From an uncultured Solirubrobacterales bacterium (GTDB lineage: Bacteria > Actinomycetota > Thermoleophilia > Solirubrobacterales > 70-9): 64,000 nt of DNA. The stretch covers positions 972,495 to 1,036,494 of the forward strand of contig OY969812.1 in assembly GCA_963703335.1 (NCBI GenBank). Direction: 5' to 3'. The stretch's first letter is position 1, and every line of letters starts with the position of its first letter. Positions 12,148-17,580 of this stretch are shown here, in pieces. A program made the position numbers and the translations under genes. Below the pieces are notes generated by a model. That model worked only from the letters and a program-made list of their open reading frames with translations, searched no databases and was not told where the DNA came from.

Positions 12148-12351
12148 GGCAAAAGGCGCAAGCTGCGCGTTCTTTTTCGCTACTTGCATGTTTTTCGTCC
12201 GACCGGGGGGCGAAGCTGCCACAACGCCCCCGACAGGACGGAGAGCCATGCCAAGGGAAATCTTCGACCAGGACCGGCCTCGCAGCACGATGGCTAGACG
12301 CCTCGACGAAGCGTTTGCGGGCTGCGACCAGTGGACGCTTGCGCCCCCTAC

Positions 12352-13053
12352 TCAACGGCGCAGTGAGGTCACCTTTAGCCCGCGGCCCCCGATCTCTTCG
12401 AGGATCAGCGGCAGTGCCGCCGCCGTGCGCACCCAGGAGCCTCGCGCGCTGTAGTAGTCGGCGTCGTGCAGGAGAACGATGTCGCCGGCCTCGATGCCGG
12501 AGCTTGAGCGACGAGTGATCGACTCGGCGGTTGCGCGCCGATCCCAGTCGCGCCCCCAGCGTGACCAGAGCACCGGCCGCCAGCCGCGGCGTCGCACCGC
12601 TCGCAGCGTCGCCGCGCTGAAGATGCCATAAGGCGGGCGGTAGTCGGCGACTGCCTGGCCGCTTGCCTCCTCGATCGCCGTGCGCCCACGTTCTGCGTCC
12701 TCGAGAAATTGACGCACTCCGAGCCTGAGGAGATTGCGATGGCGATGGCAGTGCAGCTCGACTTGGTGACCCGCTGCGACGATCTCGGCGGCCAGCGATG
12801 GCCGCCGCTTAACCTGCTCCCCGGCAAGGAAAAAGGTTGCCGAAGCACCGTGCTCGCGCAGCACCTCCATCACAGCGGGAGTGCCCTGCGGGTGTGGCCC
12901 ATCGTCGAAGGTGAGGGCGACCCCGGCGTTCCCTTTCTGGCGCATCTCGATATCGAGGGCCCGGCCGAGACCCGGGACAACGGGCGCGAGAGCGGGGCCG
13001 GCGTGTAGGACGGCGGCGGTCGCTGTCCCGGCGCCGAGCAGCCGCCCGATCAA
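12352..13053 (-). CDS. Polysaccharide deacetylase (NodB homology domain)
   Basis: LTFDDGPHPQGTP...ATFFLAG...ELHCHRH motifs. 4-nt overlap with the upstream fusion gene stop. Confidence 0.85.
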   Translation of the reverse strand: MIGRLLGAGTATAAVLHAGPALAPVVPGLGRALDIEMRQKGNAGVALTFDDGPHPQGTPAVMEVLREHGASATFFLAGEQVKRRPSLAAEIVAAGHQVELHCHRHRNLLRLGVRQFLEDAERGRTAIEEASGQAVADYRPPYGIFSAATLRAVRRRGWRPVLWSRWGRDWDRRATAESITRRSSSGIEAGDIVLLHDADYYSARGSWVRTAAALPLILEEIGGRGLKVTSLRR

Positions 13054-15383
13054 GGGGCTTCTTGGCTGCCGGCCCGCGCGGCCGCTTCTTGCGGCTGGGC
13101 CGCTGCTGCACTGGAAACCGCCGGCGACGATTCATCGTTGTCCCTGCCGAGGTGGATGCGTCCCTCGAGCGGCTTGGCGATCACCTTGTAGGGAGCTTCG
13201 CGGTCGATCACCGTGAAAAACATGACGACGAGGATCGCGACGAGGCTAACCGCGGCGACGACACGCTCCACGCGCAGGCGCCAAACCGGCTGCGGCTTTA
13301 CCCGCGGCCGCACCGTCAACACCCGCGAGGCGATCGAGGGCAACGAGGCAAAGGAGGAGTCGGGCGGACGCCGCTCGCGGCTGAGGTGGCGCAGCACCGA
13401 CCCCAGCTCGTGCTCGGATCGCGCCACCTCGGCCAGGCCGAAGCGCTCGAAGGCGGCGTTGTTGGCCCGCAGGTGACCGGCCGAGAAGCCGAAGGAGACC
13501 ACCGGGCAGCCACGGATGTGCGCCTCCAGCACGGTCAGGCCGGCGGTGGAGTGGACCATCACGTCCGCCGCGGCCATCCAGTCGCTCATCTGCTCGGTGA
13601 AGCCGAGGATGCGCACGCGCTCGTGGCTAGCAAAACGCTGCTCCAGCTTCTCGCGTGCGACCTCATTGCGGCCGGTGATGCAAACGACCGTGGTGTCGTC
13701 GCTGGACAGCGCCGAGGAGATCGCCCCCTCGAGGTCGCCGATGCCCCAACCGCCGCCGGAGACGAGTACGAGCCGATCGTGCACGGGAACGCCGAGCGCC
13801 TTGCGCGCATCCACACGCGTCCGCGGCATCAGGAAGTCGGGTGAGATCGGCGGGCGGGTCCACTCGACGCTGCCCGGCCCGGCGAGCCGCTCGACTTCCT
13901 CGATCGACTCGGGGTGGGTAACGAAGTGCAGGTCGACCCCTGGGTGGACCCAGTAGCGCAGGCCGGCGAGATCGGTGATCGCCGACTGCACCGGGACAAG
14001 CAGGCGGCGGTTCTCGCGCAGCATGCCCAACACCGCGGTGACACCCGGGTAGGTGGAGACGATGACGTCGGGCTGGTGCTTCTCGATCAAGCGCAGTAGG
14101 CCGCGACTGCCGAGCGCGTAGCTGAGGTGGTGCATGAGCCAGCGGGTTGGGGCGAATTTGGTGATCAGCCAGTACTGGACGTCGAAGAGCCAGGGCATCC
14201 AGCGGAAAGTGAAGCGAGAGCCGTCGCGCGCAACCGCGGAGGAGATCTTGCCCATCGCCTCCAGGCCGTTCGCTATCTCGACCTCGCTACCGGGGACCTC
14301 GGCTTCGAGGTCGGCTTTGATGATCCGTGCTGGCAAGTCATGCCCCTCGCCGATGTCTGCGGTGAGGACAAGCACGCGAGGATCGCGCTCTTCAAAGCGC
14401 GAAGCCCCCGCAAGCAGAGCGCCTGCCGCGTGTTCGTTGCCGTTCAGCGAAGGCTGCTTGCCGGGAATCGGGTCGGGCGGACGGGTGCTGTTGCGAACCC
14501 ATTCGACGTACTTGCGAACCCCTTCCTTGAAGCTCGTCTCGGCCTTCCAGCCCAGCTCGGAGAGCGCCCGCTCGTTGGAGATCGCCTTGCCGGGAAAGTC
14601 GCCGGGCCGCGGCGGCGTGTGGACGATCTCGCAGTTATCGGTGTTTTCCTGCACCCGCTCGGCGATTTCGAGGATCGTCACCACCTCGTCGCCAGAGAGG
14701 TTGTAGGTGCGGCCGGCGGCCTCGGGCGCCAGCGCCGCGACAATTCCGTCGGCAAGGTCCTCGACGTAGATGAAGCTGCGGGTCGTGCTGCCATCGCCGG
14801 CGATCGTCAGCGCCTTGCCTTCGAAGGCGAGGTCGGTGAACTTGGCGACGACGCCGGCGGCGCGGGCGCGGGGGCCGTAGGGGATGCCGAAGCGGAGGAT
14901 GGTGCTCTCCAGCTCGTAGAGCTCCGCGTAGCCGGCGCAGTAGGTCTCGCCGGCGAGCTTAGTCGCGGTGTAGAGGTGGCGCGGCGCCGGAATCGGGGTT
15001 TCCTCGTCGACGTCCTGCTCGACGCAGTCGCTGTAGACCCAGGTCGTCGAGCCGTAGACGACGCGGCCGACCTTGGCCCGACAGGCAGCCTCGAGCACGT
15101 TGAGCGTGCCGCGGGTGTTGACCTCCTCGGCCAGAACGGGGTCGGCGAGGACGTGGCCGACATCGGCGACCGCGGCGAGGTGAATCACCGCGTCGCAGTC
15201 GCGCATTGCCAGGTCGAGGTTGGCGGGGTCGGTGATACTGCCGGTGAAGGTCTCGACTTCGAGTGGCGAGTGGTAGGGCGAGGCGCTGAGATCGAAGATG
15301 CGCGGCGTGATGCCGCGCGCGATAAGGCAGTCGACCACGTGGGACCCGATGAAGCCGCCGCCGCCGGTTACCAGGACCCTCAT
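13050..15383 (-). CDS. Fusion protein: NAD-dependent sugar epimerase/dehydratase (SDR) plus an MGDG-synthase/GT28-like glycosyltransferase with a C-terminal TM helix
   Basis: MRVLVTGGGGFIGSHV...YTATKLAGE (SDR Rossmann fold and YxxxK), a Pro-rich linker, then VLVLTADIGEGHDLPA...LVSGGGWGIGD...HSTAGLTVLEA (UgtP/MGDG-synthase-like), then VVAAVSLVAILVVMFFTVI. There is no in-frame stop between the domains. ATG 15383 forms an ATGA overlap with the DegT stop. Confidence 0.8.
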   Translation of the reverse strand: MRVLVTGGGGFIGSHVVDCLIARGITPRIFDLSASPYHSPLEVETFTGSITDPANLDLAMRDCDAVIHLAAVADVGHVLADPVLAEEVNTRGTLNVLEAACRAKVGRVVYGSTTWVYSDCVEQDVDEETPIPAPRHLYTATKLAGETYCAGYAELYELESTILRFGIPYGPRARAAGVVAKFTDLAFEGKALTIAGDGSTTRSFIYVEDLADGIVAALAPEAAGRTYNLSGDEVVTILEIAERVQENTDNCEIVHTPPRPGDFPGKAISNERALSELGWKAETSFKEGVRKYVEWVRNSTRPPDPIPGKQPSLNGNEHAAGALLAGASRFEERDPRVLVLTADIGEGHDLPARIIKADLEAEVPGSEVEIANGLEAMGKISSAVARDGSRFTFRWMPWLFDVQYWLITKFAPTRWLMHHLSYALGSRGLLRLIEKHQPDVIVSTYPGVTAVLGMLRENRRLLVPVQSAITDLAGLRYWVHPGVDLHFVTHPESIEEVERLAGPGSVEWTRPPISPDFLMPRTRVDARKALGVPVHDRLVLVSGGGWGIGDLEGAISSALSSDDTTVVCITGRNEVAREKLEQRFASHERVRILGFTEQMSDWMAAADVMVHSTAGLTVLEAHIRGCPVVSFGFSAGHLRANNAAFERFGLAEVARSEHELGSVLRHLSRERRPPDSSFASLPSIASRVLTVRPRVKPQPVWRLRVERVVAAVSLVAILVVMFFTVIDREAPYKVIAKPLEGRIHLGRDNDESSPAVSSAAAAQPQEAAARAGSQEAP

Positions 15384-16456
15384 GGTTCCTCCTCGCCGAG
15401 CGCCGCCGAGCGGGTTTCCGGTCGGTAGTAGAGCGGCACGCACCAGTGGTTCTCTGCCACCCAGTCGGTGTTTGGCAGTTCGTCGGAGCGACCCATGATG
15501 CGGTGGCAAGGCTCTTCGTAGACGCGGCCCGTGGACTTCTCGACCGGGTCGAAGACGAGGTACTTGTAGAGGCCCGAGGTCATGCCCTCGGGCAGCTCCA
15601 GTCTGCCGGGATGCAACTGGTCGAGGTGCTCTCGCGCGTGCTCGTTCTTCCAGGCGACGATCTCCTCCATGCGGTCCGCCTGGACCAGGCCGAGCGCCGC
15701 GGTGAACTCGCTCATGCGGAAGTTGAGGCCGTCGACCTCGTGCTCGAACTTGCCGTAGTTGCGGAACTTGCGCGCGAACTCGATCAGGCCCTCGTCGGCG
15801 GAGACGAGCACGCCACCCTCGCCAGCGGAGATCGTCTTGGTCGCGTAGAGGGAGTAGACGCCTGCGTCGCCGAAACCGCCCGGCTTGGCACCGTTCCACT
15901 CGGCGCCATGGGCGTGGGCACAGTCCTCGAGCAGGAAGATGCCGTTAGCGCCGCAATACTCGGCAATGCGCTCAGCGTCGAAGGCGATATGACCGCCGAT
16001 GTGAACGACGATCGCCGCCTTTGGCTTGTGCTGCTCGGCCTTCTCCTCGAAATCCTCGAAAGACATGCAGAGATCAGTGCGATTGCAGTCGACGAACTCG
16101 ACCTCAGCGCCGGCGTTGATCGCGGCCAGTGGCGTCGCCATGAAGGTGTTGGACGGGCAGAGGACGGTCTCGCCGCGAACCCCGGCGAACTCAAGCGCCG
16201 CCAACGCCCCTCCGGCCCAACTCGAAAGCCCGATGCTCGGCAGCCCGTTCCACTCGGCCCAGCGCGCCTCGAACGCCTCCAGCATCCGCCCCTCCGACCA
16301 CTGCTCGGAATCGAGGACCTCGGTCCAGAGCTCGAAGAGCCGGGCGCGGTCACGATGGTCGAAGCCGATGGCGAACTTACCGGCGTCCGAGACTGGAGAT
16401 TCGGTTGCCAAGAGCGCCGCCAGGCTACCAGCGAGAGCAGACCTGACACTTCGCAT
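15380..16456 (-). CDS. DegT/DnrJ/EryC1/StrS-family PLP-dependent sugar aminotransferase
   Basis: CPSNTFMATPLAAINAGAEVEFVDCN, EDCAHAHGAEWNG and SLYATKTISAGEGGVL (PLP lysine). The start is either 16456 or 16495. Confidence 0.85.
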   Translation of the reverse strand: MRSVRSALAGSLAALLATESPVSDAGKFAIGFDHRDRARLFELWTEVLDSEQWSEGRMLEAFEARWAEWNGLPSIGLSSWAGGALAALEFAGVRGETVLCPSNTFMATPLAAINAGAEVEFVDCNRTDLCMSFEDFEEKAEQHKPKAAIVVHIGGHIAFDAERIAEYCGANGIFLLEDCAHAHGAEWNGAKPGGFGDAGVYSLYATKTISAGEGGVLVSADEGLIEFARKFRNYGKFEHEVDGLNFRMSEFTAALGLVQADRMEEIVAWKNEHAREHLDQLHPGRLELPEGMTSGLYKYLVFDPVEKSTGRVYEEPCHRIMGRSDELPNTDWVAENHWCVPLYYRPETRSAALGEEEP

Positions 16457-16521
16457 ATCTGCGTCCTCGGTCGCTCGCGTGCAGGAGCACGCCACGCTCC
16501 CTGCGTCCTTGATCTGCTTGG

Positions 16522-17427
16522 TCAGGTCTGCTCTCGAGCATTTTCAATTACCGCTCCAACCGCGCTTGAACCCGCGAGCAACACGGTTCCGCCTACAGCA
16601 ACGGCCATTGAAGCGACCAAGACCGCCCCGTCGAGGGGGGTCGATCCCCACGACTCGCCGAAGATCAGCGGCGCAAGAAGAACCGGAATGAGGACCTGGA
16701 CCGCGAACATGACCGGGGCCACGTGCGTTGCGGGTCGTTGCTGCAGGGCGCTCATCTCGCTGAGCAGCGCCAGGCCCTCGGAAGCCGCAGCCGTGGCGAG
16801 CCAGGCGACGGCCACGATCACTGCGCCCGTCGCCAGCTCATCGGTGAGCAGCTTGCTCGCGATCGCCGTCCAGGCATAGCCACACCCGGCGCTGACCACG
16901 GCCATGGTGGCGATCGCATTTGCGTATCCGACTTTGACCACACCAGAGTGTGGTGAATGTCGGATGCGCTGGCGCAGCACGTAGGGAGCGGCGATCGGGA
17001 TCGCGACCAGGCCAAGCGCCAGGGCTATCGCCCCTGCGCCCGCATGATCCGTAGTGCGCTCCGGCGCCGCCAGCGCCACACCCGCCACCCCGAGCACGAT
17101 CGCGCCCACAGCAGTCCACTCGCGAGATCCAGGCCTCTCCCCCAGCCGCGTCGCCCCCAGCCAAAGGAGCAAAATGAGCCCGCTAGCCAGGCAGGGCTGC
17201 ACCACCGTCAACGGCGCCAGCAACAGTGCCACGATCTCCAACGGCCACCCCGCCAGCCCCAGCGCCGTGGCCCCCAGCCACTTCCGGTTCCGTACAAGCT
17301 TCCCAAGCAGGGACGGCCGCAGCGAGTGCTCCCCCGGCACCTCCCGCGCCTCCAACGCCTGCAGCGCAATCGACGCGTTGTAGAGCAACGAAGCTCCCAC
17401 CGCCGCAACAATCCCGAGAGCAATCAC
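16522..17427 (-). CDS. Polytopic membrane protein, DMT/NIPA-like transporter
   Basis: 301 aa with about 9-10 hydrophobic helices and internal two-fold similarity. It is the first gene of the sugar operon. Confidence 0.55.
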   Translation of the reverse strand: MIALGIVAAVGASLLYNASIALQALEAREVPGEHSLRPSLLGKLVRNRKWLGATALGLAGWPLEIVALLLAPLTVVQPCLASGLILLLWLGATRLGERPGSREWTAVGAIVLGVAGVALAAPERTTDHAGAGAIALALGLVAIPIAAPYVLRQRIRHSPHSGVVKVGYANAIATMAVVSAGCGYAWTAIASKLLTDELATGAVIVAVAWLATAAASEGLALLSEMSALQQRPATHVAPVMFAVQVLIPVLLAPLIFGESWGSTPLDGAVLVASMAVAVGGTVLLAGSSAVGAVIENAREQT

Positions 17428-17488
17428 GCCGCGACCCTACCCAGCTACGCGACGAAGCTTTAGCTGGAGTAGCGAGACGCTTCGAGAC

Positions 17489-17567
17489 GGCCGGTTCGGA
17501 TGCCCGTCAGCGGACACTCAAGCGCGGCCTCCGGCCGCGCGTCCGATGATGGGCGTCCGAACCGGCC
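17489..17567 (-). terminator. Compound GC-rich hairpin downstream of ETF-QO
   Basis: GGCCGGTTCGGATGCCC (17489-17505) pairs with GGGCGTCCGAACCGGCC (17551-17567), 16 of 17 positions. An inner hairpin GCGCGGCC-TCC-GGCCGCGC is also present. No clear U-tract. Confidence 0.35.
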
Positions 17568-17580
17568 GCCCCCCCACCAC

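Follow-up and report, generated by a model that had tools for sequence, protein, structure and literature searches.

A stretch of 64,000 nt from an uncultured Solirubrobacterales bacterium (contig OY969812.1; this whole stretch is hereafter the window) carries an operon of four open reading frames (ORFs), all on the minus strand. They encode a membrane protein resembling the drug/metabolite transporter (DMT) superfamily, a DegT-type aminotransferase dependent on pyridoxal phosphate (PLP), a fusion of a short-chain dehydrogenase/reductase (SDR) with a glycosyltransferase (GT), and a deacetylase of the NodB type. The features are listed in Table 1, and all operon coordinates are window positions. 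The ORF coordinates confirmed the gene order given in an earlier reading of this DNA (the original prediction), as well as the ATGA-type overlaps that it described between the last three genes: ATGA at 15383-15380 contained the DegT stop and the fusion start, and TTGA at 13053-13050 contained the fusion stop and the NodB start. The DMT-like and DegT genes were separated by a gap instead of an overlap, being 26 nt when DegT was counted from GTG and approximately 65 nt when counted from an ATG at 16456. The latter codon has a better-spaced GAGGA, gives a protein of 358 amino acids (aa) and is the probable true start; the relatives of DegT aligned mostly from around residues 26-35, and some of them from residues 6-19. 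No match to the sigma-70-like promoter consensus, which says little for this phylum, was found upstream of the operon.

Table 1. Features of the operon and its downstream border
Feature	Window position	Strand	Remarks
DMT-like membrane protein	17427..16522	-	301-aa ORF
DegT aminotransferase	16495..15380	-	371 aa counted from GTG
SDR-GT28 fusion ORF	15383..13050	-	777 aa, no internal stop
SDR domain of the fusion, aa 1-300	14484..15383	-	GalE-like extended SDR; STxW/RFGIPYGPR subfamily
Pro-rich linker, aa 301-332	14388..14483	-	AlphaFold2 (AF2) predicted local distance difference test score (pLDDT) <50
GT28/MGDG-synthase-like GT-B domain, aa 333-690	13314..14387	-	Pfam MGDG_synth + Glyco_tran_28_C
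Single C-terminal transmembrane (TM) helix, aa 708-726	13206..13262	-	Kyte-Doolittle 19-residue mean 3.02; AF2 helix 700-726
Short low-complexity tail, aa 727-777, and stop	13050..13205	-	~50 aa
NodB/CE4 deacetylase	13053..12352	-	233 aa, TTG start
Terminator-like GC hairpin	12156..12168		Consensus match only; between the convergent NodB and alpha/beta-hydrolase genes

The original prediction regarded the third gene as a natural SDR-GT fusion without a stop between the domains, with the reservation that a stop codon at 14300-14450 could have been missed. The homologue search with the fusion protein gave 1952 matches. Both domain sets were present in all of the best 120 clusters from this search, which showed 84-93% identity, and the length was 765-791 aa in 119 of these 120; the exception was P0025 (1010 aa), an SDR-GT-NodB fusion. 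The homologues were drawn from NCBI, JGI, ENA and Logan assemblies and were mostly labeled Solirubrobacterales. As the fusion was conserved in more than 100 independent clusters of approximately 775 aa, a missed stop was excluded, by conservation across assemblies and not by resequencing. Within the genus, the fusion with identical gene order was found in 15 of 24 genomes. Although it had been called unusual, the fusion is the rule in this abundant lineage of soil bacteria, and in the literature its architecture was not found described in any paper. In a 51%-complete metagenome-assembled genome (MAG), the fusion gene (G003:C14:69646-71851) was frameshifted within the GT domain at around residue 386-391, not at the domain junction, and its sequence suggests either an assembly error or a pseudogene.

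Pfam analysis of the fusion detected the three expected domains, which were Epimerase (aa 3-229, 1.6e-49), MGDG_synth (PF06925; aa 352-497, 9.3e-14, 52.3 bits against a cut-off of 25) and Glyco_tran_28_C (aa 539-659). Along with the one TM helix at the C-terminal side, this agreed with the GT resembling monogalactosyldiacylglycerol (MGDG) synthase that had been proposed. The AF2 model of the whole fusion had a mean pLDDT of 65; the GT domain was modeled well, the SDR domain and linker were modeled poorly, and the inter-domain geometry was unusable.

The best sequence matches of the GT domain in the PDB were a processive diacylglycerol (DAG) glucosyltransferase (9wde, 1.7e-23) and MGD1 (4wyi, 2.6e-20). 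The AF2 model of this domain (pLDDT 80-93) also matched the MGD1 fold, with a template modeling score of 0.69-0.73, and the GxGH and GGGWGxGD motifs were invariant or nearly so. By sequence and model, the closest resemblance of the domain is to diacylglycerol glycosyltransferases, not MurG; against the NCBIfam equivalog cut-offs it scored far below, at 116 versus 500 bits. It shares with MGD1 and UgtP (YpfP) the MGDG_synth and GT28 C-terminal domains, the GxGH and GGGxG motifs and the MGD1 fold, but differs from them in the TM anchor and the SDR fusion, and in the likely donor, an N-acetyl-amino sugar instead of galactose or glucose. PAP2 phosphatase genes were located beside or near the GT gene in approximately seven loci, which fits a supply of diacylglycerol by a lipid phosphatase, and the acceptor would be a diacylglycerol-type lipid. 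Many GT homologues carried, after the TM helix, a domain of approximately 180 aa without any Pfam match at the place where the window fusion has its short tail. The hhalign comparison of this domain with NodB gave a probability of 83.6% (E 8e-6), and as the catalytic motifs are absent, it appears to be a degenerate NodB fold.

The closest solved structures of the SDR domain were the UDP-N-acetylglucosamine (UDP-GlcNAc) C4-epimerase PelX (6wjb, 1.6e-42) and the GalE proteins of Thermus (2p5u) and Thermotoga (4zrm). It shares with these 4-epimerases approximately 31-35% identity over the whole domain, the Thr/Ser-Tyr-Lys triad (Thr114, Tyr138 and Lys142, aligned with that of PelX) and the NAD motif (GxxGxxG). 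The original prediction had described a complete epimerase/dehydratase, against the background that DegT enzymes aminate keto-sugar nucleotides made by SDR dehydratases. A dehydratase of the known kinds was not borne out, as the alignment contained no acid/base pair (D-E, S-E or D-K) after the catalytic Thr, where the window protein has T-W (S-T-T-W within GSTTWVYS) and the orthologues have ST[TIV]W. The nucleoside diphosphate (NDP)-hexose 4,6-dehydratases (RmlB, GMD, PseB/PglF and LegB) were rejected on the absence of these residues, and an ArnA-type decarboxylase was rejected on the absence of a Glu after the catalytic Thr. None of the NCBIfam equivalog cut-offs was reached by the SDR or by DegT; the SDR scored 142 versus 365 bits for dTDP_gluc_dehyt, 117 versus 475 bits for LegB, 116 versus 262 bits for TIGR01179 (galE) and 48.5 versus 294 bits for PRK11908.

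All of the SDR orthologues had the subfamily signatures ST[TIV]W, RFGIPYGPRAR and LTIAGDG, which differ from those of the epimerases in having Trp two residues after the catalytic Thr and Ile-Pro instead of the Asn of RYGNVYGP. These residues place the domain in a distinct STxW/RFGIPYGPR subfamily and speak against an ordinary epimerase. The window SDR further differs from PelX and GalE in having an obligate DegT partner and membrane-anchored or fused forms. The subfamily occurs in soluble form, with a C-terminal anchor of approximately four TM helices, fused to the GT, and fused to two different kinds of DegT, and these forms argue for the hand-off of a keto sugar to the aminotransferase. The TRSFIYV and RPGD motifs are present in the window protein, and we take their Arg and Asp to be the UDP-binding positions of GalE-type enzymes.

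The remaining three proteins were assigned with differing confidence. The DegT protein was confirmed as a PLP aminotransferase of fold-type I by Pfam DegT_DnrJ_EryC1 (PF01041; 1.5e-57, 195.9 bits against a cut-off of 19.8) and by the PLP lysine motif SLYATK; its best NCBIfam matches, PseC, LegC and DesI, were all under the cut-off, and the ArnB equivalog gave 77 versus 631 bits. The NodB protein was likewise the predicted deacetylase with intact catalytic motifs, as Pfam Polysacc_deac_1 (PF01522) was detected at 6.2e-30 and the CE4 motifs TFDDG, H..H, RPPYG and LLHD were invariant in the alignment (A6); the matches to NCBIfam NodB and PdaB (approximately 1e-35) were below the cut-offs. For the membrane protein, the assignment to the DMT superfamily drew consistent but weak profile matches. 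NCBIfam DMT_1 matched over aa 7-287, i.e. the full length, at 6.6e-4, a weak EamA match was found in 14 of 24 orthologues (best 7e-5), and NIPA, TMEM234 and SLC35F were other fitting weak matches. Hydropathy and the all-helical AF2 model (pLDDT 82.7, approximately 10 helices) indicated 9-10 TM segments. No MprF-type match was obtained in the Pfam and orthologue profile searches. The protein may therefore be a distant DMT-superfamily member, as the profile matches weakly suggest, while Foldseek did not confirm this part of the original prediction.

The linkage of these genes was compared in loci of other families of the order, in those from a draw of 401 Actinomycetota genomes and in those from a second scan. 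In three loci from other families of the order (L015, L016 and L099), the five modules, counting SDR and GT separately, were adjacent yet split, reordered and inverted. The genomes with split genes in shuffled order and orientation were G038, G035 and G284. Fused forms were found in the loci L013, L014 and L098; in the genomes G026, G031 and G310, NodB and DegT were followed by a fusion of 908 aa with an extra C-terminal domain. The search for fused versus split genes in relatives thus detected both versions, and adjacency kept through such rearrangement is strong evidence for a shared function of the five modules, as had been supposed when the four genes were read as one functional unit.

The GT domain was found in 20 of the 401 Actinomycetota genomes. 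The recurrent core across Actinomycetota and Chloroflexota consisted of the GT, NodB and DMT-like genes, often with PAP2. The order GT-NodB-DMT was unchanged in at least 11 loci of Rubrobacterales and Thermomicrobiaceae/Thermobaculum, in most GT-NodB-DMT loci the GT carried the NodB-like domain after the TM helix, and the DMT-like gene adjoined GT or NodB in approximately 20 diverse loci. SDR and DegT were found only in Thermoleophilia among the Actinomycetota and Chloroflexota loci compared, and there they were always mutually adjacent. Over all loci with either DegT or the SDR subfamily, the exceptions to this adjacency were L116, with DegT alone, and L117, where DegT had other SDR neighbors (38% and 28% identity, non-STxW). 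The DegT-SDR pair is an add-on to the GT-NodB-DMT core. Natural fusions joined DegT to SDR (P0233 and P0263, 641 and 705 aa), GT to the DMT-like protein (L140:3649-5928 in a Chloroflexales MAG, 760 aa) and PAP2 to GT (P0217, 639 aa).

Other genes were also observed at these loci. Two genomes from a single genus had a gene for an FAD-linked oxidase (FAD_binding_4 + FAD-oxidase_C) beside the GT (L016:10342-12000 and L017:6646-8283). In one of the two, G039, no SDR, DegT, NodB or DMT-like gene was near the GT; the difference between G035 and G039 thus concerns NodB and DMT besides SDR and DegT. In a Rubrobacteraceae MAG (L110), a methyltransferase gene and a DedA/VTT-domain gene were found downstream of GT-NodB-DMT.

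The operon is an accessory cassette, present or absent within the genus. In the genomes G010, G014 and G020, the genes for the alpha/beta hydrolase and the ETF-ubiquinone oxidoreductase flanked the site as in the window, but enclosed 0.8-1.7 kb of unrelated DNA instead of the operon. That members of a single genus so cleanly have or lack it suggests an adaptive trait of the envelope. Comparison with L120, L121 and L122 gave 12148-17580 as the variable site, which was occupied by a DUF6236 gene in G014 and, in G010, by two tiny membrane ORFs. On the plus strand, a small ORF (68 aa; 12248-12454), whose product begins with MPREIFDQDRPRSTMARRLDEAFAGCDQWTLAPP, runs toward NodB from the opposite direction and extends into the 3' end of that gene. 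It had no Pfam match, and its first 40 or so residues were kept beside the alpha/beta-hydrolase gene in members of the genus that lack the operon (L120 and L121).

On balance, we consider it probable, by a modest measure, that the operon serves as an accessory cassette in the synthesis of a cationic amino-sugar glycolipid, in which a core of the synthase-deacetylase-flippase (SDF) type would be preceded by oxidation and amination of a nucleotide sugar through SDR and DegT. The SDR would oxidize a ring hydroxyl of a UDP-N-acetylhexosamine (UDP-HexNAc) with NAD+, most likely at C4, without dehydration or decarboxylation, and DegT would convert the resulting ketone into an amine, by which the head group would gain a second amino group. 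The cytoplasmic GT, anchored in the membrane by its C-terminal helix, would transfer the N-acetyl-hexosamine-type sugar from the UDP-sugar to a diacylglycerol-type lipid, and the fusion of SDR to GT would put donor synthesis at the site of transfer, where the substrate channeling supposed in the original prediction may take place. The DMT-like protein would carry the glycolipid product across the membrane, and NodB would strip the N-acetyl group to give a free amine. The position of a dead NodB-like domain after a single TM helix in the homologues suggests that deacetylation may take place outside. The cationic amino-sugar glycolipid of the original prediction is accordingly the best-supported product so far as the core of GT28, NodB and membrane protein matches a known scheme (HexSDF, below), while the acceptor lipid that it named is a putative one. 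A stronger form of this proposal, in which the STxW/RFGIPYGPR SDRs would be new NDP-hexose oxidases, neither dehydrating nor decarboxylating, that give 4-keto-HexNAc to DegT for a 2,4-diamino-hexose glycolipid, is speculative, and we would not expect it to hold in most outcomes.

Several observations weigh against the proposed pathway. The closest solved relatives of the SDR are true epimerases, and we know of no SDR that releases a 4-keto-hexose for DegT without dehydration or decarboxylation. The best solved relatives of DegT are inosose/aminoglycoside aminotransferases (7b0d and 2c7t), which do not act on nucleotide sugars, with NDP-sugar enzymes scoring close behind. In most architectures the SDR is membrane-tethered, through the GT or through its own approximately four TM helices, which also fits a lipid-bound sugar. 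The conserved N-terminal segment of NodB is Ala-rich and only weakly hydrophobic, so that NodB may act on either side of the membrane, and Foldseek of the DMT-like AF2 model against the PDB gave no significant match. The acceptor, too, could be other than diacylglycerol, e.g. phosphatidylglycerol (PG), phosphatidylinositol or glycosyl-DAG.

Whether SDR and DegT would act on the nucleotide sugar, as the original prediction had supposed, or on the lipid was considered from a distant lineage. In an Omnitrophota genome, orthologues of DegT and of the SDR (58% and 50% identity) stand as a pair with the same STxW/RFGIPYGPR signature, again beside an N-deacetylase gene. At this locus, L115 (12023-15891), the pair was followed by genes for a PIG-L deacetylase, a cytidylyltransferase, WbqC, NeuB, a PseG-like protein and two radical-SAM/SPASM proteins; a second SDR-DegT pair was present, and no GT28 gene was found near the pair in Omnitrophota. 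From its gene content, L115 appears to be an uncharacterized cluster of the nonulosonic-acid type. The presence of the pair in a soluble nucleotide-sugar cluster, the kept UDP-binding positions and the soluble SDR orthologues together favor action on a UDP-sugar.

Tailoring on the lipid nevertheless stays a live rival owing to the frequent membrane tether of the SDR, although we consider it unlikely. The GT would then make a HexNAc-lipid from UDP-GlcNAc, after which the SDR would oxidize the lipid-bound sugar, DegT would aminate it and NodB would deacetylate it, in a manner resembling aminoglycoside tailoring and the cyanobacterial epimerase MgdE. MgdE acts on glucosyl-diacylglycerol and carries a fatty-acid-hydroxylase domain; a membrane protein gene of the fatty-acid-hydroxylase family adjoins the DegT-SDR pair in L099 (13072-13737, genome G284). 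This alternative accounts for the anchoring of the SDR in two independent ways, by fusion to the TM-bearing GT and by its own C-terminal helices, fits the non-nucleotide keto-cyclitols and glycosides used by the best PDB relatives of DegT, and requires no change of GT donor specificity when SDR and DegT are added. However, soluble stand-alone SDR orthologues are common too (L099; P0154, P0165, P0168 and others), the orthologous pair in Omnitrophota has a purely nucleotide-sugar context, and the GalE-type residues that hold the UDP diphosphate are conserved in the SDR. Nor does anchoring require a lipid substrate, as membrane-anchored SDRs using soluble UDP-GlcNAc exist; PglF and WbpM are such enzymes.

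The SDR might also be an ordinary UDP-GlcNAc/UDP-Glc 4-epimerase supplying UDP-GalNAc for a galactosamine lipid, with DegT serving another purpose or a side branch. The complete catalytic triad, the absence of dehydratase and decarboxylase residues and the 4-epimerases as closest solved structures are all in line with this; PelX, one of these 4-epimerases, supplies a GalNAc polymer that is deacetylated in part. We nevertheless judge it improbable, and a little more so than tailoring on the lipid. DegT and the SDR subfamily were adjacent in every locus having either, except L116 and L117, are translationally coupled in the window operon, and occur as fusions in two lineages, involving two different types of DegT; the conserved signature of the subfamily is unlike that of the epimerases, and the galE score was less than half of its cut-off. 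Least probable of all is a polyprenyl-linked or wall-polymer intermediate as acceptor of a MurG-like GT that decorates a cell-wall glycan or exopolysaccharide, with the logic of Arn or of Pel/poly-N-acetylglucosamine: GT28 does include MurG, exopolysaccharide pathways typically contain NodB enzymes and PelX-like epimerases, PAP2 enzymes may be undecaprenyl-diphosphate phosphatases and a GT87 gene adjoins the GT in L101, but the N-terminal half of the GT is MGDG_synth and not the MurG N-terminal family, the GT matches diacylglycerol glycosyltransferases best in both sequence and fold, and no GT-C, WecA or polymerase/exporter gene recurred in approximately 40 clustered loci or was present in the operon, on which a recurrent GT-C or WecA partner was rejected for the loci sampled.

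If the speculative stronger form of the proposal is correct, its head group would be a doubly cationic one that has not been described before, displayed by an uncultured lineage that ranks among the most abundant soil actinobacteria. Cationic aminoglycolipids alter membrane charge, and in the two studied cases daptomycin/bacitracin resistance was affected or resistance to cationic antimicrobials was suspected. To this chemistry, the operon of the Solirubrobacterales, uncultured and very abundant in soil metagenomes, would add a second amination step, and the scheme as a whole would then also cover Actinomycetota and Chloroflexota, where another protein is the flippase candidate. Sugar chemistry that is as yet unexplored may be found in the paired or fused SDR-DegT enzymes, and the SDR-GT, DegT-SDR, GT-DMT and PAP2-GT fusions provide a map of working partners for biochemistry. 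Our literature search on Thermoleophilia aminoglycolipids and on the PDB entries 8VR2 and 8VR3 found nothing useful.

Three known systems were compared with the operon. The Arn system for 4-amino-4-deoxy-L-arabinose in Gram-negatives comprises an SDR oxidase, a DegT enzyme, a lipid-directed GT, a NodB-family deacylase and a flippase of the DMT/SMR (small multidrug resistance) type, and ArnA is itself a natural fusion involving an SDR. The window operon has the same parts list and an SDR fusion as well. It differs in that the Ser-Glu (T-S-E) and Arg residues of the oxidative decarboxylase of ArnA are absent from the window SDR, and no formyltransferase, GT2 ArnC or GT-C ArnT was found in the operon or its flanks. 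In addition, the Arn GT2 acts on undecaprenyl phosphate, whereas the window transferase is GT28-like.

The GpgSDF system of P. aeruginosa makes glucosamine (GlcN)-PG (PMC12713373), and this product shows that systems of this kind can use an acceptor other than diacylglycerol. It has in common with the window operon the logic of synthase, deacetylase and flippase leading to a cationic amino-sugar lipid. Its transferase is, however, of GT4, its deacetylase of COG3233 and its flippase of the AglD2/YbhN type, without SDR or DegT. The two are analogous and not homologous.

The closest counterpart was HexSDF of C. difficile, in which a GT of the MGDG-synthase family, a polysaccharide deacetylase and an MprF-like proposed flippase are encoded in one operon (PMC10128005). 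HexS, annotated as an MGDG synthase, and HexD make aminohexosyl-hexosyl-diradylglycerol, and the N-acetylated intermediate builds up without HexD (PMC10128005). The window operon likewise combines a GT of the MGDG-synthase family, the likeness to HexS being one of family annotation, with an adjacent intact CE4/NodB enzyme and a membrane protein. It belongs to another phylum, its flippase candidate is DMT-like and not MprF-like, with a role that may be analogous, its GT has a TM helix and an N-terminal SDR, and it has DegT in addition. In the window, the operon has no two-component regulator beside it; in L110 (10559-11971), a gene for a HAMP-HisKA-HATPase histidine kinase immediately precedes GT-NodB-DMT, which recalls HexRK beside hexSDF. 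Judging from these sequence relationships, the actinobacterial core appears to be a third version of the synthase-deacetylase-flippase scheme, two parts of which are homologous to HexS and HexD.

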